A DNA stretch of 64,000 nt. Origin: Eledone cirrhosa. Its lineage: Eukaryota. Below the pieces are notes generated by a model. It saw only the letters and a program-made list of their open reading frames with translations, did no database searches and was not told the origin of the DNA. Position 1 is the first letter of the stretch; the number at the start of each line of letters is the position of its first letter. The translations under genes and the position numbers were made by a program. Positions 21,469-61,567 of the stretch are shown piece by piece. The stretch spans positions 195,548,001 to 195,612,000 of the forward strand of contig OZ024741.1 in assembly GCA_964016885.1 (NCBI GenBank). The letters run 5' to 3'.

Positions 21469-21580
<112 letters not shown>

Positions 21581-22462
21581 TCGTAGTGGACTATTGTATG
21601 CGCCTTGCACTGGAGAAACACCAGGACTCTGGCTTTACTGTAGCACCGGCTCAGAACAGGAGAGTTAAGGCGAAAAAGATATCGGATGCTGAATTTGCCG
21701 ACAACATAGTTTTGGTGACAAATACAGTGAAGGAGGCAGAGGATTTGATGCAGGAGGTTGAGACTGTGTCGATAAGTGTGGGGCTGAGAATGAATGAGAC
21801 TAAAACAAAATATCTAGTAGAGAATGTTGAGAAGCCAGAGGGGATCACTAAGGTAGGCGGGGGGAAGCCGCTAGAATTGGTTGAGGACTTCCTGTATTTG
21901 GGAGCAAAGATTGGGAATACGGAAGATGATGTGGTTGAGAGGAAGAGCAAAGCCTGGGCGGCGTGCCACAGCTTGAGACCGGTGTGGAAGTCGGACCTTC
22001 GTAGAGACCTGAAAATCCGCCTCTTCATTACTTTAGTGGAGTCCGTGCTGCTGTACGGGTCTGAGACTTGGACACTGACCAAGAAACTCACTCAGATGGT
22101 GGATGGGTGCTACACGAGAATGCTGAGGATGGCTCTGAACATTAATCAGTATACACTGAGGATGAAAAACTCAGAGCTGTATGGGAGCCTCCAAAAAGTC
22201 AGCTCAAAAGTGACACAGAGGTGATTGAGGTTAGCTGGACATGCTCACCGACATCCAGAGTTGACATTGCACTCAGTGCTCCTGTGGGAGCACCTACATG
22301 GACACACTGGAAGAGGAAGACCAAGGTTAACATATGTTGATGCCCTAAGGACAGGCACTGGTCTGTTGGAGACGCAGGACATGGCAGCGATAATGAGGGA
22401 CAGAGACCGCTGGGGAGAACTCGTCCGTGGATCTCGGGAATTTTACCCGCCCTAGAATAGAA
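21581..22462 (+). mobile_element. 5'-truncated RTE-type LINE (RT C-half and thumb)
   Basis: EFADN (FADD variant), GLRMNETKTK, FLYLG, ESVLLYGSETW, RLAGH, GRPRLTY; one internal stop; followed by (TA)n. Confidence 0.85.
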
Positions 22463-22940: not shown

Positions 22941-23016
<76 letters not shown>

Positions 23017-23057
23017 ATATATATATACACACACATATGTACATACATATACATATG

Positions 23058-23334
23058 TACATATGGGTTATATCAAACATAAATAATGATGTTCGATTCG
23101 TTTGTAAATAAACGGCCCGATTTGAAGCTGTGCCGTGCCAGTCAGTGACTGATCATCACTTGTCTGTTCAACACTGGCAGAGGTGTACAGTCCTGATGAA
23201 GGGTAATTGTCCCTCAAAGCTAGTGCTGAACAAACAGGTGATGATCGGTCACCGGCACGGCACTACTTTAATCGGGTTGTTTGTTTACAAACGAATCGAA
23301 CATTATTATTAATATTCAATATAACGCATATGTA
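23058..23334 (+). mobile_element. Fold-back element with ~120-bp arms and a degenerate hammerhead core at the tip, related to the 31-kb retrozyme-like repeat
   Basis: Arms aataatgatgttcgattcgtttgtaaataaac.. and ..gtttgtttacaaacgaatcgaacattattatt; centre CTGATGA-aggg..ccct-CAAA; right arm resembles 31190-31300. Confidence 0.75.
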
Positions 23335-23354
23335 TATATATATATATATATATA

Positions 23355-24001
23355 CTAGCAAATGACCCCCGTCCATTGGACGGTGTCAGTTCTTGGTAGG
23401 GCTGCAATGTTAATGGTCAATTTCCGTGTTGTATGTTTAACTTGGAGGATAATTTTACCTGATCAACTCTTTCAATAAAAAAAAATGAGACGGTATTCAA
23501 AAAGAGCAAGTTTTATTTACAGATATGTGTCATTAAAATGTGAACATAGAGAAATGTATCGTTAGCCGTGTCGGTTGAACAATGTGTAATTTTTTTTATT
23601 AATAACCGAAAGACAAACAGTAAATGAGACTGGATGTCAAACCATTTTGGATTGCATGTAAAGGTGATAAAAAGATCAGGACGGCCACAATGGTGGACAT
23701 AGGTCAGAGCATCCTGCATTTTTTCATGCATATAACGGGGGCCTCCAGTGTATGATGATGGGAGAATGACAGAAAGCCCAACATCCGAAGCATTAGCCTG
23801 ATCATTTCGGTTTACTTCGTCACGTAGATTGCTGTATTCTTCTGAACGCAGTTCCTTTTGATGATGTCTTATCCATTGGAGGCGTTCAGTGTCAATCTTA
23901 GCAAATATGTCTACACAGTATTGATTGAGGAGCATCCGTGTTCTATGCAGAATGTTGACGTCGTTTTTGCGAAACATAAGTCTAAATGCATAAAATTCCA
24001 T
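23355..24001 (-). mobile_element. Helitron fragment: part of the Rep domain joined to a canonical 3' end
   Basis: ORF 23513-24001 has YAFRL..QY.VD...ERL..IR.HQKELR..VILPSS.TGGPRYM..DAL..GRPDLFITFTCNPKW. The minus strand ends in a ccgtcca/tggacgg hairpin then CTAG followed by T. Confidence 0.88.
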
Positions 24002-24780: not shown

Positions 24781-24848
24781 ATTTTATCTGATGAGAACAC
24801 AAATTTTGTCCCAGGATCATGTTGTTTTCGAAATGCGCATAATAAAAT
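24781..24848 (+). ncRNA. Type-I hammerhead ribozyme motif (Penelope-like, palindromic stem III)
   Basis: attttat-CTGATGA-(imperfect stem II)-GAAA-tgcgca-TA-ataaaat; perfect 7-bp stem I; ATGCGCAT is self-complementary. Confidence 0.7.
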
Positions 24849-24993
24849 ATATGGAACTTTTTTAACCATCTTTTAATTTCTTCTTTAGCATATACTCCAG
24901 TTCTACCAACTGTTGAGTGCTACTTATCTGATATATGCATAGTTTTATTGTTCTACAATATTACTCACCTTCTACATATATATATATATATGA

Positions 24994-25042
24994 GATTCTA
25001 CAGGACTAGAACTGTTTCATTCTTTAGAAATCATCAGGAATC
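24994..25042 (-). ncRNA. Type-I hammerhead ribozyme motif
   Basis: Minus strand: gattc-CTGATGA-t.ttc.taaa.gaa.t-GAAA-cag.ttctagtc.ctg-TA-gaatc; GUA cleavage triplet. Confidence 0.78.
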
Positions 25043-25171
25043 TGGGTATCAAAAAATAAATAAATAAATAAATAAATAAATAGGAGAACTCCTATTACCC
25101 ACTCTACAACCCTAAGTATTGAGTACTCTGGTGCGTTATGGTCCATCTGGTTCCTTACCACAACTACTTCG

Positions 25172-27899: not shown

Positions 27900-29369
27900 T
27901 TTTTCTCAGTTTATGATTACACGATATTATTAATTCCTGTCGCTTATTTAATAGGATATCCTTAGATTTCATTATTTAAAAAGGTTCTTGGGAACATAAT
28001 TTACATTCATATCTACTATTTTGAGCACACTCCAGGTCAGGTCATAATCTATATTCCTCTTTCTATAACTATTAATTATTTCAGCTAGAGATGTTGTATT
28101 AGCTAGTGCGGCATTTTTAAAACTATGTTTGTGGGTATTAAATCTTACCTTAAATTTGTTAGAGGTAGCTCCTATATATGAATAAATTGAGTCCTTAGTG
28201 TTAGCTTTACATTTATATACTATGTTATTAACAAGGCAATTTCCTTTTAATGGACAGTTTGCCTTGTTTCTACAGTTACAACTTTTCGTGAATCCTGTAT
28301 CTGAGGAGATATTATGGTTAGTTTGATGTACTGGTGGTATACTCATGGTTTTTTTACATTTATATGCATTATAGGCACTTATATTTTGTTTTATGTTTTT
28401 GGTTGTTGAGTAGGAGAATTTAACCGTTGATCTATTTAAGATTTGATGGTATTTGTGGTTTGGCGGGAAGTTTTTCTCTAGGATATTAAATAATTTTTTA
28501 GGTATATTATCCTTAATTTGTAAATTAAATGGAGCATTATACCAAGTAACTCGTCTATTACGGTTTCGATGTTGTTTATTGTTTTTATAGGATGCATCCT
28601 GATGTTTATTAAGAGAATTATTGTTAATGACCTCACCACACACATTTTTAGTTAGATTTATTGATTTAGGTGTTTTAGCTTGTTTATTAGGAGTTTTATT
28701 ATTAACATTTATTAGATTTGTAGGATGAGTAGTTTTTTGAGAGTTACTATACTGTATATTAGAAGAGTTAGAGAAAGTTGGTTTTATGTTGGTGTTTTGG
28801 GGTATAGTGTGAGTGGCTTTTAGGTGTGTATGTTTCATTTGGTGTTTGTTGGTAATATTAGGTTGTATGTTTGTAGTGTTATTGGTAGAAGGTATATATA
28901 CTAATCTATTTTTGTGGCCACTTCTAGCTAGAGCTTCGTTATAAAAGGTCGCATTTTTATCAAATACATCTTGGTTAGACGAAAGGTTAGAAATTCTAAG
29001 TGAGATATTATATGCAAGGTTTTTAAGGATAGATTTAGGGTGATTAGATTGTGAGTGTATGTAGTGTAAATTTTGGTTGGGTTTATGGTAAGGTTGGTAG
29101 ATACCCGTAGATAAGTCTAATGTTATATCTAGGAAATTAACTACTTTACTTGTGTTTTCAAATGTAATATCTAGACTATAATAGTCTTTAAGGAAAGTTC
29201 TAATAAGCTTTTTATTTTTTTCTATCTCTGAGAGGCTAAGGTTATTGGAAAGAAGAAGACAGTCGTCACGATATAAACCACCTTTAAGGTGGGGAAAGGA
29301 AGCATTTATGTTAAAAAGAAGAAAGAAGCCCACAAGATCAGTAATTTGGGCAGAATCGCTTGAGCCCAT
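27900..29369 (-). mobile_element. 5'-truncated Penelope-like element (RT C-half, linker, GIY-YIG endonuclease)
   Basis: MGS, LYRDD, VNFLDITL, YHKPN, YIHSQSNHP; CNCR..CPLKGNCL..IVYKC..YIGAT..FKVRF..H..SF; frameshift before CKLC..E near 28000. Confidence 0.88.
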
Positions 29370-29509
29370 AGTAATATCGAATAGATTACTATATATATAT
29401 ATATATATATATATATTTAAAGGTTAAACAAGGTTCAATGAATAAATCAAAGAATGAGTGTTACAATAGATTGGAAGCACTCAACAACATTGGTTTTCTG
29501 GAGTTATTA

Positions 29510-29816
29510 ATATTAATTCAAAATATTAACAAAAATAGACATTCGTGTGATCAAGTATATTTTATTATACATATTTCAGAGGTACTGAGCTATCTTCAAC
29601 AGTACGTCCTCATCAGATAAAATAAGATGATGCATGACATACCCTGACATAGTAGCAGTTCATGACTGAATATTAACCATCTACTATGTCATGCATCATC
29701 TTATTTTATCTGATGAGGACGTACTGTTGAAGATAGCTCAGTACCTCTGAAATATGTATAATAAAATATACTTGATCACACGAATGTCTATTTTAGTTAA
29801 TATTTTGAATTAATAT
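29510..29816. repeat. Near-perfect ~130-bp-arm palindrome with a hammerhead motif on each strand (- 29558-29624; + 29702-29768)
   Basis: + copy: tattttat-CTGATGA-ggac.gtactg..cagtac.ctct-GAAA-tatgta-TA-ataaaata; the left arm is its reverse complement. Confidence 0.85.
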
Positions 29817-30719
29817 ATATATATATATGTATATATGTGTGTGTGTATGTGTATGTATATATGTTTTTTAATATGTGTGTATGGGTTTACGTATATGTTT
29901 ATTTGTATGAGTGTGTTGATTTTTTATTGCGTGCGTGTGTGTTCGCGCGTATGTGTACGTATGTACGTGGGTTATGTACCTTTGAGATTAATCTACCCAA
30001 TTTATTGTAGGTTTTTTTGTATGTATATGTATGTGGATGTGTGTGTATCTGTATGTATGTATGTGTATATATGTGTGTGTGTGAGTGTATATATGTATAT
30101 GTATATATGTATGCATATATATATATATGTACATATATGTGTGTGTTTGTATGTGTGTATAGGTATATATATGTATGTGTATGTGTATATATGTATATAT
30201 ATATGTGTATATATATATATGTATATGCATATCGTGTGTATTTGTTTATTTTAAAGTTGTTTTTATTTATTCCCCCCTCCCCTCACACACTCACACCTTT
30301 CGTTGTCATCACGTCCCCTTTTTGACTTTATTTTGTTTCTGATTTTGATTTTTACTTTCTTATATATATATTGTATTTGTTGTTCTTATTTATTTAGTTA
30401 TTCCTGCTTCTAAACTACTTCCCGTATTTGTGTGTACATTTTTGAGTGCATATATATCTGTGTATATGTATGTGTATGTATTTATGTTCCTGTCCATATT
30501 TCTATGTAGACGCAAATACGCTTATGTGAGAAAGTATACGTCTACGTATGCGCGTAGTTGAATGTGTATGTTTATGTTCTGGATATTTATTTTTTTATAT
30601 ATATATTTTTTATATTTCTTTTCGCCTATTTCCTTTTCGCCCGTTTTTTTCAGTCTCACTTTCATATTTCCTAAATTTTGTTTTCAAATCCATATTTAAT
30701 AAAAACACCATGTTATTTA

Positions 30720-30777
30720 TTCATTCTGACGACTGAAGACAGACACATCTGCCTTCAAGAAACCACTGGTAAATGAA
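30720..30777 (+). ncRNA. Type-I hammerhead ribozyme motif
   Basis: ttcatt-CTGACGA-c.tgaag.a.caga.caca.tctg.c.cttca.a-GAAA-cc.act.gg-TA-aatgaa; GUA site. Confidence 0.8.
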
Positions 30778-31127
30778 ATAATTATCTTATGTTGTTTATT
30801 ACATAACTAATAAGCGCTGTAGCCTACATAGAGCACTCTTTTTTCCTGTACCTTTCCGACCTTCCATATGTACATATATATATGTGTGCATGTATGTATA
30901 TATATACATACTCCTGTACGTCTATATACATATATGTATGTACGTATACAATTCTTATATTTAAGTAACAGCCGTACTAAGAGTGAGAAATGAAATTTCG
31001 TTTCATTTTTTCCATTTATCGTTTTCGGTGCGCCCGGCCGATTAACTCACTCGATATGCAAATTAGGCTGTTCAGCCGTTAATATGCATAAGGAAAGTAT
31101 ATACTTTCAGACGTTCAATCATCTGGC

Positions 31128-31184
31128 AGGAAGGTATACGGTGCTGACGATAGCTAATAAGCTTGAAACTAGTACATCGTTCCT
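31128..31184 (+). ncRNA. Minimal type-I hammerhead, unit 1 (predicted cleavage after 31174)
   Basis: aggaa..cggtg-CTGACGA-t.agct.aata.agct.t-GAAA-c.ta.g-TA-catcg.ttcct; stem III ACTAGT is palindromic. Confidence 0.8.
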
Positions 31185-31555
31185 TTGTCAGTGTTGAACA
31201 AAAGGGCAACGATGGTTGCTAAACACTGTACGGCTTAATCCGGGATGTTTGTTTACAAACAAACCGAGCATTATAATAAATGTTCGGTAAATCCATATGT
31301 ACATATATATATGTGTGCATGTATGTATATATATACATACTCCTGTACGTCTGTATACATATATGTATGTACGTATACATTCTTATATTTAAGTAACAGC
31401 CGTACTAAGAGTGAGAAATGAAATTTCGTTTTATTTTTTCCATTTATCGTTTTCGGTGCGCCCGGCCGATTAACTCACTCGATATGCAAATTAGGCTGCT
31501 CAGCCGTTAATAGGCATAAGGAAAGTATATACTTTCAGACGTTCAATCATCTGGC

Positions 31556-31614
31556 AGGAAGGTATATACGGTGCTGACGATAGCTAATAAGCTTGAAACT
31601 AGTACATCGTTCCT
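31556..31614 (+). ncRNA. Minimal type-I hammerhead, unit 2 (predicted cleavage after 31604)
   Basis: Core identical to unit 1. Confidence 0.8.
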
Positions 31615-31814
31615 TTGTCAGTGTTGAACAAAAGGGCAACGATGGTTACTAAACACTGTACGGCTTAATCCGGGATGTTTGTTTACAAACAAACCGAGCA
31701 TTATAATAATTGTTCGGTAAATCCATATGTACATATATATATATGCGCATGTATGTATATATATACATACTCCTGTACGTCTGTATACATATATGTATGT
31801 ACGTATACATTCTT

Positions 31815-31892
<78 letters not shown>

Positions 31893-31929
31893 TGGCTGCC
31901 AACTCGTTTTCGGGTACGGCCACTACTTT

Positions 31930-32482
31930 ATATCCATGTAGGAGAACCCCTACCGATGCGCTGAACAAGTGTGACTTTTTAGTCCAGCCAGCGACTTGAA
32001 AACTCTGGTACAAACACTACACTTGTGACAATTATTGACACATAGTGCTGGGCCCATGGTACCATGTGATGACAAGTGCAGAGAGATCTCCAGATATAAA
32101 GCAATGCCTGTGCCGTGAAGCTTTTATAGTGAGCAAAGGCACTGCACAAAGCCAGTCCCACTCTCTTAACCAAGATGATATTTACCAAAAAGAAGAACAA
32201 GTCAACATCATTGGATACCATCAGAGTTGCAGGTGTTATATCAGAGTTTCCTTCTCCTAAAATTCTGCCTTGACAAAGGCTAAGGGGTCATCTCTCCCAG
32301 TGATTTTGGATGGCCATTGACGTTTAAGAGCTCCTTTGCCCTTTGACAGGTTTTGTTTTTAGTCCTGCAGGATGTCCAAAGTCACCCTCCTCACCAACAA
32401 ACCTTGGTGGGGTTGCCAGTTTAGTCGCCAACGACCCGACCATGAGACAGGTTGTACTGGCATACATGTTACCAGTAGCACC
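31930..32482 (-). mobile_element. Probable RTE-5'UTR-derived non-autonomous repeat or SINE fragment
   Basis: Minus-strand gtcgt..ggcgactaaa and ggagaaggaaactctga motifs, which I recognise from RTE 5' regions; bounded by (TA)n. Confidence 0.4.
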
Positions 32483-33383
32483 AACTATATATATATAACA
32501 GTAAATGTAAATTTTATTCACAGTTGTATAAATAACATTACAAATTGTTCACAATTCTTTCAGAATAGAAGTATAACACAAATATAAACACATATAATAA
32601 ATACAATTAACTATTGCTAGGAACCTCACAAATATAACACTCCAAAATATACGATCGGAGCTAGAAAAAAAAAGAAAGAGTTAAAGCAGGTAGACACACA
32701 CGCACTTGTGTGTGTGAAAGAGAGAGAGAGAGAGAGGGGGGGCGAGAGAGAGAGAGGGGAGAGCGAGACATATGTTGTTTACTTCGTGTCTACCTAAAAC
32801 GCAGGATAGATTAAAGAAAAAATGACCTCAAAATCTTATGGGTGACCACCGTATTCGCTGTTGAATATAATAGCCGAAGATATAGATAACGAAATAAACT
32901 GGAGATAGATTCCTTCAAAATACCAGGTGCGAGGGAGACATCGAGTATAATATACAGCGTCATCACCGGGTAAACTATCGAAAAAGGAAGTAAAATATAA
33001 TGAGTCATAGTATAATAATAGAAACGGAAAACCCTCCTCCTGTAGTCACTGTGGAAAAACCCTCATATGTATATAAATGCATGCTTTTTAAGTTACGCTG
33101 CCAAACCAGAAATGTATAGACATATCAACATGAACATTAGATATATTTTAATAGGTAAGTAGACGCTAATGTTTGTTTTGAACCTTTGACCGGGGACCTA
33201 GGAGCTTTAATGATCCGTAAAGGTAAGGGCAGGGGTACTTAAAGGTATAACGGGGTTTCCGTAAGTTAAGTCAAAAAATTAATATACATACACTATTTGT
33301 CTCTAAGTATAAACATTTCTCTCCTTCGATTATTATTATCGTCAATATTACAACTATGGTCGTGAAAAGGTTGGGAACCACCG

Positions 33384-37035: not shown

Positions 37036-37296
37036 TATATATATATATATGTTGTGTTAGGTAATTCCGAAGGAAATACAAAGGAAAAAAGAGTGCTCTA
37101 TGTATAGAACAGAGCATATATTATTATTGTCTGGGATCCAGAAACCTTTGGTAATGGAGTAGTTATATTTTATGTTGTTCACTTTCTAATTAAGCAGGGA
37201 AAAGCGGACGTAAAATGATGATGATGATGATGATATATATATATAATTGTTTTTAACAGATTTTCAATCTCATTTCGTATTTTCATTTCATAATCT

Positions 37297-37364
37297 CTCT
37301 ATCTGATGAACGATCTAGACGTATGTTAATATTGTCTAGGGTCCTGAAACCTTTGGTAATGGAG
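37297..37364 (+). ncRNA. Type-I hammerhead ribozyme motif
   Basis: ctctat-CTGATGA-ac.gat.ctagac..gtctag.g.gtc.ct-GAAA-cc.ttt.gg-TA-atggag; 3' tail catagagcactcttttttcct shared with the 30.7- and 62.6-kb copies. Confidence 0.78.
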
Positions 37365-38722
37365 TAATATTGTGTTGTTCACTTTCTAGTTAAATAGCTC
37401 TGTTCTATACATAGAGCACTCTTTTTTCCTTTGCTTTTTCTTTGGAAATAATATATATATATATATATATCATCATCATCATTATCGTTTAACGTCCATC
37501 TTCCATGTTAGCATGGGTTAGACAGTTTTGTTCCATTCGATGCAGGAATGGTCCCTGCCTCGCTCGCACGGAAGCATCTCTGGCAGGTTTTTTTACAGCT
37601 GGATGCCCTTTCTAACACCAACCATATTTATAGTGTGGACTGGAATAGGAGGGGGCGGATGAGGTAGAGGTGTGTGGTGGGGTGTACATTGGGTTAAGAG
37701 GCACCTATTGACTGTAGGTTTGTATGCAATGGCAGTCAGGTCTTCTGTACAACTGCATGGCGCCAAAGGTCTCAATCCAGAGTCATTGTCTTAGAGAGGC
37801 GTATGACACTGGATCGAGACCTTTGGCCCAGTGTCATACACACATATATATATATATGTTGATGAGGTTAAATATCAACTATAATCTCACTTACACACAT
37901 TACACACTCAATAAAGTATGGAATGAACTTTTAAGGAACAAAACCTGTCTCAGAGTGCTTACCAAGTGTATGTTTGGTATATAAAACCTATAGCAAACTG
38001 GCATATACTATACGAGGGTACTCAGTTTCCTGAAACAAGCTGATTTTATGGCCACTTCATTCATCAACCAAATACATGTCACTTGACATGTGTTTTACAT
38101 AATATAAAATGTTTACTTCAAAGTAATAATAATTAACTTGCTTCACTAAATGTTCCATAATTCTAGATTATTTTTGAAATTAAAACAGAAATATTTGAAA
38201 AACCTTGTGTTAAGTTTAGTCCCTGGAGCCCTTTCATCAAGTCTAACTCAACAATCATCTCTTTTGCTCCAGTTAAGTTTAGTCCCTGGAGCCCTTTCAT
38301 CAGGTCTAACTCAGCAATTTTGCTCCATTGATAACCAAGAATTTAGTATTTATTGCTCCACATGTGTCTCAGTTTTTCATATCACAAGAGATGACTAAAA
38401 GGGTTGACATCAGAAAAGGTATCATCCAGCTCTAAAAACCATCCTGGCCATGTGTATTACCATGATATGGTGAGAAAAGGATTAAAACAACTGCCTACCT
38501 CATTTCCAATACTGCATCCCATGGAATATCCAAGCTGGTGACCCTCTTTCTGTCCCTTTTCATTGCCATAGTTCAACTCATTAGTAAAACTTGCTTTCAC
38601 AGAATTATAATTTAAAATATTCTACCACACACACACAAATATATATATATATATACGTTATTCCGGGTTGAATCGGAGGTAACCACAGTAAGTAAGGTAC
38701 TCAATACATAGCAGAGTATAAA

Positions 38723-38848
38723 AGTTTTAATATAGATGAGATTCTACAGGGCTAGAACTGTTTCATTCTTTAGAAATCATCAGGAAGATTCCTGATGATT
38801 TCTAAAGAATGAAACAGTTCTATTCCTGTAGAATCTCATCTATATTAA

Positions 38849-38852
<4 letters not shown>
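38723..38852. repeat. Palindrome with 64-bp arms and back-to-back hammerheads (+ 38787-38835; minus copy has a shortened stem I)
   Basis: ..aaatcatcaggaa-ga-ttcctgatgattt..; same family as the 24994-25042 hammerhead. Confidence 0.85.
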
Positions 38853-47929: not shown

Positions 47930-49935
47930 TGTGACCATCACTTAATGTTGCTGAACTTAGGCTGAAGAAGATCAAGAAGTGCAAGAATACCAGACTGAAG
48001 TTCAATATGGACAGGCTGAAGGACCCCACCATTGCCAAGTCCTTCCAAGCAACTGTTGGTGAAAAATTTGCAGCTCTGCAAAGGATGTTGAAATGGTGAC
48101 AGCAAAGTTCAATGTGATGAAGACAGAGACAGAAACGACATCTTAGGGAAACACCACAGGAAAACTCAGCCATGTGTCACAGAAGAAGTTCTTGAATTGT
48201 GTGATACAAAAAGAGAACTAAAATAATCCAAGAATACACCAACTGTAACACCCTCTTACAGAGAGATCAGTAAGAAGATCAGGAAAGGGATGAGAAAAGC
48301 CAAAGAAGAATGGGTAGAGAAGCAAAGGTGGAAGAGTGCCTGAACAGGAACAACAGCAGGTGGGCCTTTCAATTGTGACAGATATCACAAAACAGAGACA
48401 CTCAAGAGTCAGCACCATCCAAGATAACCAAGGAAAGTGTTTCATGGAATAAAATTACATCACTGAGAGATGGACAGAATACTGCTCAGAGTTATATAGC
48501 CATCAGACCCATGGAGACCTCAGTGTGCTTATCAGTCAGGGAACATCAAACAAGGATGACTTCCCAGTCCTGCATGAAGAAGTGGAGACAGCAATAAAAC
48601 TGAAAACTGGAAAAGCAGCTGGTACAGACATTCCAGCAAAACTGATAAAGCATGGAAGAGAAGCAGTGATTGACGCTCTCACCAGAATCTGCAACAAAAT
48701 TTGGCAGACTGGGAAATGACCAACACTGTGGACTTAGTCACTGATTATCACACTCTCCAAGAAAAGCAATCTACAACACTGCCAAAATTATAGAACCATC
48801 AGCCTTATCAGTCACAAAAGCAAAGTGATGCTAAAAGTCATCCTGAACAAGATGAACTCACAAGTTGAGGAAATCATTGCAGAAGAGCAGGCTGGTTTCC
48901 ATTGTGGAAGGAGCACTGTAGAGCAGATTTTCTGTCTGAGAGTCCTATGCGAGAAGTACAGCCATCACCAACAAGATCTTTACCGTGTATTCATTGACTT
49001 CAAGAAAGCCTTCAACAGGGTGTGGCACGATGTGCTGTGGGCAACCATGAAGAAATATAACATGGGACAAAAGATCTTCCACACCATACAACCGCTATAC
49101 ATGAAAGCCTCAAGTGCGGTATTTGTCCAAGGCACAATAGGGGATTGGTGCCACACGTCAGTAGATGTCCGGCAGGGGTGTCTTCTCTCCCTGTTCAAAA
49201 TCTTCTTTGAGTGAATTATGAGTGATACCCTAGATATGGCATGGAGACCAAGCTGATGATAAATACCACAAAGCCAATAGAGAGAAAAATCCCAGTCGTT
49301 GGTCAAGAGCTGGAGAGTGTGGCACAGTTCAAGTATCTTGGTGCTATCATCAGTCGAGAGGGATCCAAGCCAGATATCCTTACAAGGAGTGCTCTAACAG
49401 CCACAACACTTGCTAAGCTGAAACCTCTCTGGAGAGATAAAAACACTACTCTCAGATGCAAACTAAAACTCCTGCATGAGTTGGTCCTATCCAACTTTCT
49501 ATACGCATGTGAGTTATGGACCTTGACCACTGAACCGCAAAGAAAGATCCAAACAGTGGAGATGAGATGCTACAGAAGAATCCTATGAATCTCCCTCTTA
49601 GGACATGTCACAAACGAAGAGGTCCGCTAAAGAATCACCCAGCATGTGAGCTACGTTGAAGATCTGCTGACCACACTAAAGAGGTAGTATGAGCCTGTAA
49701 TAAGATTGGACAGACTCTCCAAGACAATTCTCTAAGGAACAGTGTTGGGAAAGAGAAGGTGGGGCAGACAGAGGAAGTAGTGGACAGACAACATGGCTGA
49801 GTGGACAGGAAAGAACTTTGCCACAACCCAAACACTCGCCCATGACCACTAGAGATGGAGGCATTTTGTGCAGCGTTCAACACTTCAGTGTCCCAACAAC
49901 CCCGAAAAAGCTTAAGGGACCATAATGATGATGAT
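47930..49935 (+). mobile_element. Degenerate RTE-clade LINE in an intron
   Basis: LKTGKAAG.D, NYRTISL, EEQAGF..GRST.EQIF.LR, FIDFKKAF, VRQGCLLS, FKYLG with stops and deletions; (GAT)n tail. Confidence 0.85.
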
Positions 49936-55860: not shown

Positions 55861-57691
55861 AAAGATTCAATGGGTCATCATAGACCAAGTCAGTACTGAA
55901 GCAAGGCTACTGACTGCCCAAATTGGCCAGAGGTCTGCATCTTGCTTACGTATAGTCTCACATTCAACTGAGTGCACAGGAGAGGTTTTCAAAAGTGAAG
56001 GGTCCTCCTAACTCTTTGTTTGGGAAGCTTTCAATGGATGGATACTCTTCTTATCACCAACCACTTTACAGCATGTACTGGCTGCATTTATCATGTAAAT
56101 CACTAACACTAGGGAGGTTGTCGTGGTCTTGACACAATTAAAGGGTCTGCCTAAATCTTTGTTTGACAACCTTGTTACAGCCTTCCTATCACCAACTGCT
56201 GAGTTTGCTTCCGTGAGTTTGATTCCTGAACAGGGCAATGCATTATGTCCTTGAGCAAGACACATTATTTAAAATTGCTCTTTCTCCCAGGAGTTGCAAC
56301 TGCTAGACCAATGAAAACATTGATTTCATGGTCCAATTTGATGAGTTTGATGCCACTTGGTAAACAAATGAGGTTGGATCTTGTCCATCAATTGAAAGGA
56401 TAAGTTCCTCGCTGCTGCTTCCAGTTTCTCTCCAGTGCAATACATGAAAGCTCAATGCAAAAACTAAAACTAGGCTTGAACTGATCTGTGCACTTGTTGT
56501 TCATTCTTTGAAAGAGATGCAAGATCTTATTAATATATTATCCATAGCATATCAGGATTTTAGTTTCACCACTAGCCTAACAAAAACTGAAAATGCTCAC
56601 TAGCCTAGATCAAATAAATCCTCTGTTCTGATTTGCACTGGGTAAGAAGGAAAAAATATGGGTGCAAAAAGTGGTTACACATTGAGATTTTATAGTGAAA
56701 AATACTTATGTGACACGAGAGTCACCCACTCTCTAAATGTTTGAAGCTGTTAAACTAACAATAAACAAAAATAAAGCAGGATGGTCAAAGACTACAAAAA
56801 CCACAGGCTTCAAATAAAAGTATTCTTCTCTCGTGTATATTTACATAATCATGTAAATGCAGGTATACATGCACATGCATACATACATACATACACACGC
56901 ACATATATACATACATATATACACACACATGCACATACATACATACATACATGCATACACACATACATACATATATGCATAGATATATATACACACACAC
57001 GTATATAAATGCATACATACACACACATATATATACATATATACACACACATGCACATACATACATACACACATACATATGATGGCTTCAACTCGATTTT
57101 GAATAATGTCATTGCTTGATACTTGAGCATGAGCATCACGGACGTAGCTTTTTAGTGCTGCTAGTGACTTGCCTATGGCCAGATATGTCATGTATTGCAA
57201 AAAATGTCACATATCAAGTGATGCCTTTGCTTGAAGATTTTTTAAGTGAGGAAAGGCTTTGCACAGGGCCAATCTCACTCTCTTAATATTGAAAGCATTT
57301 GCCCAAAAAGAAGAACTGGTATGCATCATTGGATGCAAACAAAGTTGCTGGTTCTATATCAGAGTGACATTCTCCTAGAGAGATGTCTTAATGAAGACTA
57401 GGAGTCTCACTCCACGAAAAAAAAAAAAATGCCCGTGACTCCACTAAGAGGAGATACTTGACATTCTCCACCATAGCCTCATTGCTTGAAGAAGCAAGAG
57501 AAACAATAGAGCAGTTGATTAAACCAACCTCAGTACATTACTGGTAGTTTATTTCATTGGTTGCTGAAAATGAAAGGCAAAGTTAACCATTAGTTTTATG
57601 ATCGCTATTAAGCTTTATAAATGTTGTCATTTGTTTTTAATGTAAGCAAACTGTAAATATTTATTTATATCTTTTCTTTTTATCATTGCAG

Positions 57692-59377: not shown

Positions 59378-60703
59378 TCATCATCATCATCATCATCATC
59401 GTTTAACGTCCATGTTCCACGCTTGCATGGGTTTGGACGGACGTTTTCCCACTTGAGGCAAGAGTGGTTGTCTTGCTCGCATAGGACTGTCTGGCAGGTT
59501 TTCTACGGCTGGATGCCCTTCCTAACACCAACCACATTTACAGTGTGGGTCTGGGAGGTTTTTACCGTGTTGCCTACACGGCCACATTACAGCGTGGACT
59601 GTGTGTTTTTTTGTCGTGACACCTACATGACCTCATTTGTTTCGGCCTGGATGTTGTGGCACCAACATAACTTTACATTGAAAGGGGCGGTGTGGATGGG
59701 GTGGGAGTGGTGGGACGGGGGTGTATTTTGTTAGAGATGCCTACTGACTGTAGTAGGTTTTACTATATATTTAGGTAAGGCGGGTCTTCTCTGTTACTGA
59801 GTACCACCAAAGATCTCGGTCCAGTGACATTGTCTTGGAGAGGTGTAAGTGTGTGAGGTCGGAATTTATCAGGTCGTCCCAGGTTTTTCTGGGTCTGCCT
59901 ACTCCGCGGCTACCGTCTATCTTTATTGCCCTGCACTTTTTTATACAGCTGTGGTCTTTCATGCGCATCATGTGACCATACCAACGTAGCCTTCTCTCGA
60001 GTAAACAACATCTGATCCCTCTTATTTCTAATTTTTCCCTTAGTTCGTTTATGCTTTGCCGTTCACATATATTACTATTACACATCCAGCGGAGCATGCA
60101 AGCTTCGTTCCTCTCTAGTCTGCGTATATCCTCTGCACACAATGCCCAGGTCTCACTGCCATGCAACATTGCTGTTCGTATGCAGGCATCGTACAACCTG
60201 CCTTTCATTTTTAGGGAGGACCCTTTAGCGGCTAATAGTGGTATAAGCTCTCTGAACTTTTTCCATCCAGTTCTGACTCTAGCTACTGTACTTTCAGAGC
60301 ACCCTCCCCCACTGCTGATTTTGTCACCCAGGTAACGGAAGCTGTCCACTATTTCTATAGAACCCTCTGCGCAATTGAAAGAGCTAGTATTATGTGGGCA
60401 CTTGCTGCTACTTACTGCACCAGAGCACCGGACACATGTAAAATCTATGTTCTTAGTTAGCTTACCTGTGATCCCACTACATCTTTTATGCACCCATACT
60501 TTGCATTTGGGACATAAAATGGAGTTTCTACCTACGCCTTTCCTACACACTGAGCATGGCCATTTCCCGGAAGGGACCGGCGCCTTATTTTCTTTCCTAC
60601 AAACTAGAACTTTAGTCTTAGCCAGGTTAATTTTAAGGCCTTTTGATTCTAGGCCATGCTTCCATGTTTGGAATTTCTTCTCTAGCTCGGCCATTGATTC
60701 AGC
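59378..60703 (-). mobile_element. 5'-truncated RTE LINE with an internal PHD-like zinc finger and (ATG)n tail
   Basis: GLKINLAKTK..CSVC..CPKC..VHKRC..CVRC..FRYLG..MLHGSETW..RLRWYGH..GRPRKTW. Confidence 0.85.
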
Positions 60704-61567
60704 TATATATATATATATATAAACAATGATATACAGATATATGCCCTTCTTGACACAAACCATTTTAGTCGCTTCTTATGATAGATATTCAAGGTATCTA
60801 CTCTAAACCAGATTGACAGTGAAAAAATAATATTATTTTAAGAATCCTACAAATATTTACACAGAATTCATCATCATCCTCATCACCATTATTATCACCC
60901 TCACCACCACTGCCACCACCACCACCATCACCACCACCATGATCATCATCATCATGATCATCATGATCATCATCATCGTTTAACACAAAACAAATTTCAA
61001 AATGAAATAAATAATAGCCAAAGAATAATACGTAAGATTCAAAACATTTTACAAATTGATTCCTAAGCGAACTCAGTATATATAATGTGTGTGTGTTATG
61101 AACGGAAATAAGAGTACTCAATACCAAAGCAGAATTTAAATATTCTTTTATTTTGGCTATGTTGTGAGTCTTATATATGTGTGTGTGTGTGTCTGTTTTT
61201 CCTCGCTTACCACTGATATGTCAGCCACAAGAAAGTCAATTACCTGTTCAATTTTCAATTTCATCTTTTTTATCAAATTTCGATTTTTTTTTTTTTTTTT
61301 TTTTTTTTTTTGAATTTTTTGAATTTCTGGTCTTTGGGGATTGATTTTAAATATTTTAAGAAATGTTTGTCAGATTTTGAGATTTATATTGCATTGAATT
61401 TTTCTAAAATAATTTTGTCTTTTTAAAATTATTTTGACAATAATTTGACCTTTATTAATATTTCTAAAATAGTATTTTTAGTCTTTTTCATTTGAATAAA
61501 AGAATTTGAATGTACCAAATATTTCAAGTCTTATATAAATATATATATATATAATTTTATATATATA

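Follow-up and report, generated by a model that had tools for sequence, protein, structure and literature searches.

A tandem, hammerhead-bearing repeat at a (TA)n tract in a cephalopod-like genome: a likely non-LTR retrozyme

Closest described systems

The non-LTR retrozymes of animals, as described in the text of Cervera & de la Pena (2020, PMC7229834), are non-coding tandem repeats with units of 150–450 bp, a type I hammerhead in each unit and a self-paired monomer. The class is further marked by a GC content below 50%, many genomic copies, the lack of LTR, PBS and PPT and, where a target-site duplication exists, a length of over 4 bp for it. Mussel retrozymes have units of 350–390 bp, and the axolotl has Rtz_353, with the hammerhead HHR_Amex2. 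In the axolotl, cleavage and circle formation are on record for a retrozyme that has a 2-bp stem III and a U·U where stem II begins; an axolotl motif built like that of the unit described below was 22% cut in an hour alone and cut better as a dimer. Closure of the axolotl and mussel monomers by a host ligase was proposed, and the same text names Penelope-like elements as candidate movers of animal retrozymes. A sequence link between retrozymes and Penelope-like elements has been described for Xenopus (Li, Clavereau & Pollet 2026, 10.64898/2026.07.22.740005), in a preprint which states that organisms besides Xenopus were not examined, and in which eight of nine Xenopus dimers showed no cleavage in vitro.

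Penelope-like elements of the Hydra clade, including Hydra-1_Obim and Hydra-2_Ajap (2021, PMC8557442), insert into (TA)n and have 5'-inverted copies. The supplement of that paper gives Hydra-1_Obim as a complete (TA)n-inserting family in O. bimaculoides and contains 26 rows of Hydra hammerheads from 25 families; in these long elements the hammerhead is ca. 100–200 nt away from the 3' end. In octopods (TA)n is also favoured by Naiads, which lack canonical hammerheads and exist as remnants in cephalopods (PMC8557442). Minimal hammerheads in the pseudo-LTRs of Penelope elements (Cervera & de la Pena 2014, PMC4209133) have a palindromic stem III, and opposite-strand pairs of them, 100–700 bp apart, are tied to truncated elements.

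The window analysed here is a stretch of DNA of 64 kb, with positions counted from its first letter. Near its middle is a tandem array (Table 1) that has every sequence-level feature of a non-LTR retrozyme that could be tested and fits the working definition of a retrozyme in 10.64898/2026.07.22.740005; its cleavage and circles are predictions. The retrozyme-like identity proposed in an earlier, sequence-only reading of this stretch is supported by the size of the unit, the type I hammerhead in each full unit, the lack of an ORF, the strong fold and the membership of a multi-copy family. The unit shares with HHR_Amex2 the U·U at the base of stem II and the 2-bp stem III. The array differs from the retrozymes of PMC7229834 in a unit at the long end of the range, a GUA cleavage site, an internal TA-rich hairpin, a (TA)n end with no visible target-site duplication, and inverted copies.

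The likeness to Hydra elements (PMC8557442) lies in (TA)n insertion and 5'-inverted copies and, at the level of the ribozyme, in the U·U, a 4-bp stem II and a cut nucleotide other than C. By our count of the 26 published Hydra rows, 14 have U at both 10.1 and 11.1, as in the unit; 12 rows have A as the cut nucleotide, 10 have U and 4 have C. Hammerheads with this U·U are also found outside the Hydra clade (PMC7229834). Unlike Hydra elements, the array has no ORF, several complete tandem units and, by eye, no Hydra 3' motif, which a neighbouring element (family B) does have; stem III of the unit is also shorter, a 6-nt palindrome as against 3–4 bp in the Hydra hammerheads. The palindromic stem III and the opposite-strand pairs recall the minimal hammerheads of PMC4209133, while the stem sizes of the unit are canonical (stem I of 6 bp with an extension and an internal loop, stem II of 4 bp).

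The kind of element is already known. New here are several marks that point to mobilisation by a Hydra-clade Penelope: the (TA)38 end, the TA hairpin of the unit, head-to-head copies, the U·U in stem II, an adjoining upstream element with a 3' end like that of Hydra elements and, 1.4 kb away, a broken Hydra ORF. A literature search found no report of such an element in cephalopods; most subscription papers were outside its scope, and the supplements of PMC7229834 and of the preprint might list one. The text of PMC7229834 (its supplement being outside the scope) names no cephalopod retrozyme. In a paper on the repeats of O. vulgaris (PMC13282606) the word 'ribozyme' does not occur in the text, and neither of two motifs of the unit occurs in one supplement.

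The array and its hammerheads

Table 1. Features of the array and of related elements in the window
Feature	Position	Strand	Basis
Tandem array, 2.2 units (family A), hairpin-core-hairpin-core-hairpin	30863..31817	+	TRF, alignment
Unit 1, 429 nt	30863..31291	+	alignment
Unit 2, 430 nt	31292..31721	+	alignment
Partial unit 3, 96 nt, solely the TA-rich hairpin module; 3' end of the insertion	31722..31817	+	alignment
Predicted 430-nt monomer between both cut sites	31175..31604	+	fold z −6.5, circular fold
TA-rich hairpin, ca. 25 bp, likely copying start (inferred role)	31295..31376; also 30866–30947, 31725–31806	+	fold −35.9 kcal/mol
(TA)38 microsatellite, likely insertion target	31814..31890	+	TRF; Hydra (TA)n preference
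Type I hammerhead 1; predicted cut after A31174	31138..31180	+	descriptor, folds
Type I hammerhead 2, same core; predicted cut after A31604	31568..31610	+	descriptor, alignment, folds
Family B hammerhead element, Hydra-like at its 3' end and fused there to the array	30645..30860	+	sequence comparison; Hydra-2_Ajap match by eye
Broken Hydra-clade Penelope-like ORF: C-terminal part of RT, CxCX5C linker, start of GIY-YIG	27972..29423	−	homologues, motifs
Diverged family A relative, head-to-head inverted pair between TA tracts	22999..23357	.	alignment, sequence comparison

The array has a period of 430 with 97% matches (TRF), and the two full units differ in nine alignment columns. The longest ATG ORF round the 430-nt circle encodes 58 aa. 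Both results agree with the sequence-only reading, which had described about 2.2 nearly identical units with no convincing ORF. The additional 0.2 unit is exactly the TA-rich hairpin, so the order is hairpin-core-hairpin-core-hairpin-(TA)n. This make-up of the partial unit, the (TA)38 tract, the U·U in stem II and the family B element joined on at 30860 are additions to the sequence-only reading. GC content is 0.32 over 30001–32000. A target-site duplication is not visible in the flanks of the array, where this optional feature would be hidden by the TA tracts, and no LTR layout is apparent at the array. Both units have a C at the equivalent positions 31240 and 31670, where more than 99% of the depth in the largest contig set (X1, below) is T or A. 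This shared private base indicates that the units are sisters, from one template or from one duplication.

The cut-to-cut monomer has a minimum free energy (MFE) of −134.2 kcal/mol, which none of 100 shuffles equalled. When the TA-rich hairpin was left out, z was still −6.2 on the plus strand (again 0 of 100 shuffles) and −4.0 on the minus strand. Three long-range pairings had been proposed for the monomer; all are within 31175–31604 and all form in the MFE structure, but two need correcting. The agccgtac/gtacggct pairing is a long-range helix that, in the monomer from cut to cut, joins sequence from either side of the unit boundary. The ctggcagg/tttgtcag pairing lengthens stem I of the hammerhead, and ccgagcatt/aatgttcgg forms a local hairpin (loop of 6 nt) in unit 1 only, as unit 2 has a mismatch.

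The CTGACGA cores of the hammerheads begin at 31144 and 31574. The A of each GUA follows at 31174 and 31604, which confirms the spacing of 430 nt that had been given for these sites. In hammerhead 1, CUGACGA at 31144 and GAAA at 31165 are joined to a stem I of 6 bp (with an extension, 31123–31191) and a stem III of ACUAGU. Stem I contains one G·U and continues in a further helix beyond an internal loop; stem II has the U·U mismatch at its base, then 4 bp and an AAUA loop. Hammerhead 2 has an insertion of TA at 31563–31564, in the internal loop of stem I. The G·U is the third pair of stem I, and its G31141 reads T in 57% of the X1 depth, with no change of the partner among the variant rows listed.

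A descriptor of type I hammerheads had nine matches in the 64-kb window and none in each of 40 dinucleotide shuffles. There were no Rfam matches at the gathering threshold in the window, and at E ≤ 10 the 94 matches over 28500–33000 included no hammerhead; the highest-ranked were TA-rich miRNA models, with scores that fell far short of the cut-offs. A scan for the hammerhead pattern found nothing in metagenome, genome and viral contigs. A scan for the pattern of the 3' module found two loci, which matched over only 24–25 nt and were judged to be chance.

The active hammerhead fold is not the MFE fold. In models without tertiary contacts it costs 3.3 kcal/mol for ribozyme 1, 3.9–6.3 kcal/mol for ribozyme 2 and ca. 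7 kcal/mol in the circle. Self-cleavage at the GUA sites is predicted from the intact core and would probably be slow. The palindromic ACTAGT of stem III had been thought to let the two ribozymes pair. It is a true palindrome, with a duplex of −6.8 kcal/mol, but the double form costs 15.4 kcal/mol relative to the free ensemble, against 8.8 kcal/mol for both ribozymes folded separately (nearest-neighbour model); pairing is possible, while the folding models favour separate folds.

The repeat family and its neighbours

Reads and contigs were mapped to 30640–31300 (661 nt: family B and unit 1), with the junction of hairpin and core at 30871–30950 masked. In contig set X1, 15,676 of 16,285,364 contigs map to this target, as do 77,025 of the 12,467,656 raw RAD records of X17. 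Two other contig sets, X4 and X5, have 81 and 14 such contigs, possibly from trace host DNA in both. Parts of the unit were found in 15 of 19 listed sequencing runs, none of them recorded as RNA, and four of the 15 were mapped; the labels of other organisms among these may reflect trace host DNA. Summed X1 depth on the unit is 0.8–2.4 million, compared to 5–23 for the eight single contigs shown; the summed depth is not a copy number. These data show that the unit belongs to a highly repeated family.

The family is diverse: 49,499 of the 77,025 X17 reads are 90–95% alike, and subfamilies are visible. The sequence-only reading had called the retrozyme young; this holds for the present copy, with 2% between its units, but not for the family, which is old and has a much more diverged relative at 23 kb. 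The hammerhead core is spared by this variation. Among the 40 variant rows listed of 139, two are inside 31144–31174: the free N7 (C to T) and a loop II base. Depth stays even over the whole unit, and there are contigs across the cut site, which indicates that the copied RNA was uncut or re-joined. Reads and contigs also run from the core into the TA hairpin, with loose ends at 31297.

Ten of the 15 joints listed (of 60) for X17 are opposite-strand joints inside the unit. In seven of these the short side has the length of the stretch up to an AATT read end (30997 or 31064), as expected of a read that runs minus and then plus over a head-to-head inversion, with varied break points. Chimeras of the RAD library could explain some of the inverted joints; the same head-to-head layout is assembled in the window at 23.0, 29.5 and 38.7 kb. 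Molecule ends in X17 and mixed loose ends at 30780, 30994–30998 and 31061–31064 coincide with AATT and were set aside as library artefacts, as was a joint between 30993 and 31064.

In the diverged relative at 23 kb the hammerhead, at 23193, is broken, and both arms stop where the hairpin begins. Between the unit and this relative, 3 of 21 predicted pairs of the 3' module change on both sides, a weak signal from four sequences. The ends seen in the window coincide with the TA hairpin rather than being scattered at permuted positions. A (TA)5 or longer tract is found within 150 nt downstream in all seven independent hammerhead elements of the window, compared to 17% of random positions drawn from 21.6–64 kb; the count of seven omits second arms, ribozyme 1 and an interrupted family B copy.

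The family B copy joined to the 5' end of the array has its core at 30726 and its cut site at 30771. It is 88% like 62744–62530 (−), and there is a further copy at 37290–37440 (+). The other copies run past the point equivalent to 30860 into a short tail and then TA, while in this locus the array begins instead; mapped reads and contigs have loose ends at 30860. By eye, there is a match between the 3' part of family B and the 3' end of the consensus of Hydra-2_Ajap, from a sea cucumber; stem III of B resembles that of Hydra-1_oBim (PMC8557442). The motif common to family B and the Hydra consensus is absent from the family A unit (by eye, against five Hydra 3' ends and part of a sixth in that source). 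The fusion may have arisen by a switch of the cDNA to the RNA of B, or by insertion at the end of B with loss of its tail. Read depth rises ca. 10-fold around the family B hammerhead. At 30600–30655, just 5' of B in both long copies, is a polypyrimidine tract that ends in CAG and resembles a 3' splice site; Penelope elements have 5'-UTR introns.

Mobilisation, rival explanations and other elements

The broken Penelope-like ORF is 1.4 kb from the array. It has lost the N-terminal RT, has a TA tract inside it and has its C-terminal CxH in another frame. Of its 46 homologues, those with a species name are from Argonauta hians and Octopus bimaculoides, and the host is accordingly probably an octopod. 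The homologues carry RWK, DKT, YRDD, CxCX5C, YIG, CxxC and CxH. As these motifs are the features given for the Hydra clade in the part of PMC8557442 drawn on here, the ORF was assigned to that clade; a Naiad identity was rejected, since the nuclease is C-terminal. Pfam did not recognise the ORF, a PDB search with it gave one weak RT match (E 0.013), and a search among longer proteins gave 0 of 4653 candidates. The region 3' of the ORF includes a degenerate hammerhead-like word. An inverted hammerhead pair at 29505–29821 was considered as the pseudo-LTR of the ORF and rejected, as it has no match to this 3' region; the pair is adjacent to the ORF. It is arranged head to head, with 137-nt arms that are 98% alike and an AUA-site hammerhead on each strand, and a related motif is at 24788.

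The broken ORF shows that a candidate partner clade is present in the genome. The array itself has no RT, CxCX5C or GIY-YIG ORF, which rules out an autonomous Hydra element, and within the window the unit has no sequence in common with the 3' region of the ORF. The marks of a Hydra partner are the (TA)38 end, the position of the 23-kb relative between TA tracts, and the inverted, 5'-truncated copies. A Hydra-clade Penelope is probably the mobiliser, a link drawn from these insertion marks and the shape of the ribozyme rather than from common sequence; the Penelope link in Xenopus (10.64898/2026.07.22.740005) was made by sequence.

The array is one copy of an abundant non-coding tandem repeat with a hammerhead motif per full unit and a TA microsatellite at its end. 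It is likely a non-LTR retrozyme, a non-autonomous retroelement; a Hydra-clade Penelope protein probably copies its RNA into (TA)n tracts that have been nicked, and its ribozymes are predicted to release 430-nt monomers able to circularise. Tandem copies would be transcribed, and the multimeric transcripts would cleave themselves, probably slowly, at the GUA sites of the intact cores. As in the proposals for coral, mussel and axolotl, a host ligase might then close the monomer into a circle. The GIY-YIG nuclease would nick (TA)n, and priming would take place at the internal TA hairpin of the element, in which case a free RNA 3' end is not needed. In the text of PMC11167929, the RT of an anole Penelope starts inside its RNA, and such an internal start would allow a circle as template. 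Copying past the cut site more than once would give the 2.2 sister units and, sometimes, an inverted second arm; these products are seen in the sequence, and the route to them is our proposal. The cDNA would end at, or switch to, the tail-less 3' end of the Hydra-derived element B. The chances that the family produces circles are about even, and it is doubtful that this locus does.

The sequence-only reading had also taken the partial third unit to fit reverse transcription around a circle. It does fit, but partial tandems copied from linear RNA, as with Penelope-like elements, account for it equally well. The unit could be a detached pseudo-LTR or 3' region of an autonomous Penelope-like element not seen in the window, its 2.2 copies a partial tandem from linear, uncut RNA, with no circle. 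Penelope-like elements regularly leave partial tandems and inverted, 5'-truncated copies (PMC8557442), retrozymes and pseudo-LTRs are related in Xenopus (10.64898/2026.07.22.740005), and family B in the window resembles such a 3' end; for the anole Penelope, uncut RNA was the main template in vitro, with no reads ending at the cut site in the data of PMC11167929. We consider this origin unlikely, as the depth does not fall towards the 5' side of the unit, the two complete sister units follow each other head to tail without an intervening ORF, and the agccgtac/gtacggct helix closes across the unit boundary; Hydra hammerheads, moreover, are near the 3' end of long elements (PMC8557442).

The private base shared by both units would also result if a SINE-like monomer had inserted and later been duplicated as DNA, by unequal crossover or slippage at the TA hairpin, leaving a second ribozyme that is incidental and a locus that releases nothing. 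The array starts and ends in the TA-rich hairpin, a natural site of slippage; ribozyme 2 contains a TA slip, and local amplification is discussed in 10.64898/2026.07.22.740005. This explanation is very unlikely, as it leaves the head-to-head inversions with varied break points and the conserved core across a large family unexplained and speaks only to how this copy became a dimer. The lack of an Rfam hammerhead and an active fold that is not the MFE are what would be expected of an inert satellite with hammerhead-like words by chance, an idea made hardly credible by the descriptor counts in real and shuffled sequence, the sparing of the core and the fold that remains strong outside the TA hairpin.

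A retrozyme moved by a Hydra-clade Penelope would bear on two questions, what enzyme mobilises animal retrozymes and whether it copies the circle. The family names the Hydra clade as a candidate, (TA)n as the target and the TA hairpin as a possible priming site, and the assay with purified protein in use for the anole Penelope (PMC11167929) could test circular against linear template directly. A more specific and tentative version, which we regard as somewhat improbable, is an abundant octopod circular-RNA element that uses its own TA hairpin as internal priming site for rolling reverse transcription by a Hydra-clade Penelope protein, with the fusion to B made in one RT reaction that switched between circle and partner RNA; if true, this switch would name the enzyme that moves an animal retrozyme. 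The array also suggests that ribozyme repeats form a large class, apparently without annotation, in a cephalopod-like genome.

The window contains several other elements. A fourth family of hammerheads is found at 38723–38852 and 24984–25043; here stem III is longer, and stem II has a U·U at its base. The copy at 38.7 kb is an inverted pair adjoining (TA)n. The first third of the window (1–21580) is a cluster of L1/Tx1-like retrotransposons (EN, RT, zf-RVT) with one open frame of 1156 aa. Tracts of (GATA)n at 40, 5906, 7165, 12640, 15605 and 21477 are between these elements, which are likely a microsatellite-targeting LINE. An N-terminal fragment of a Helitron helicase (PF14214, E 1.6e-35) at 23513–24001 (−) ends near the 23-kb relative. 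LINE-like fragments that we take, by eye, to be of RTE type are at 59771–60775 (−), which carries a PHD finger, 21574–22224 (+) and 48738–49214 (+). A dispersed repeat is found at 32091–32259, just downstream of the (TA)38, and again at 57208–57377, with 75% similarity over 171 nt.
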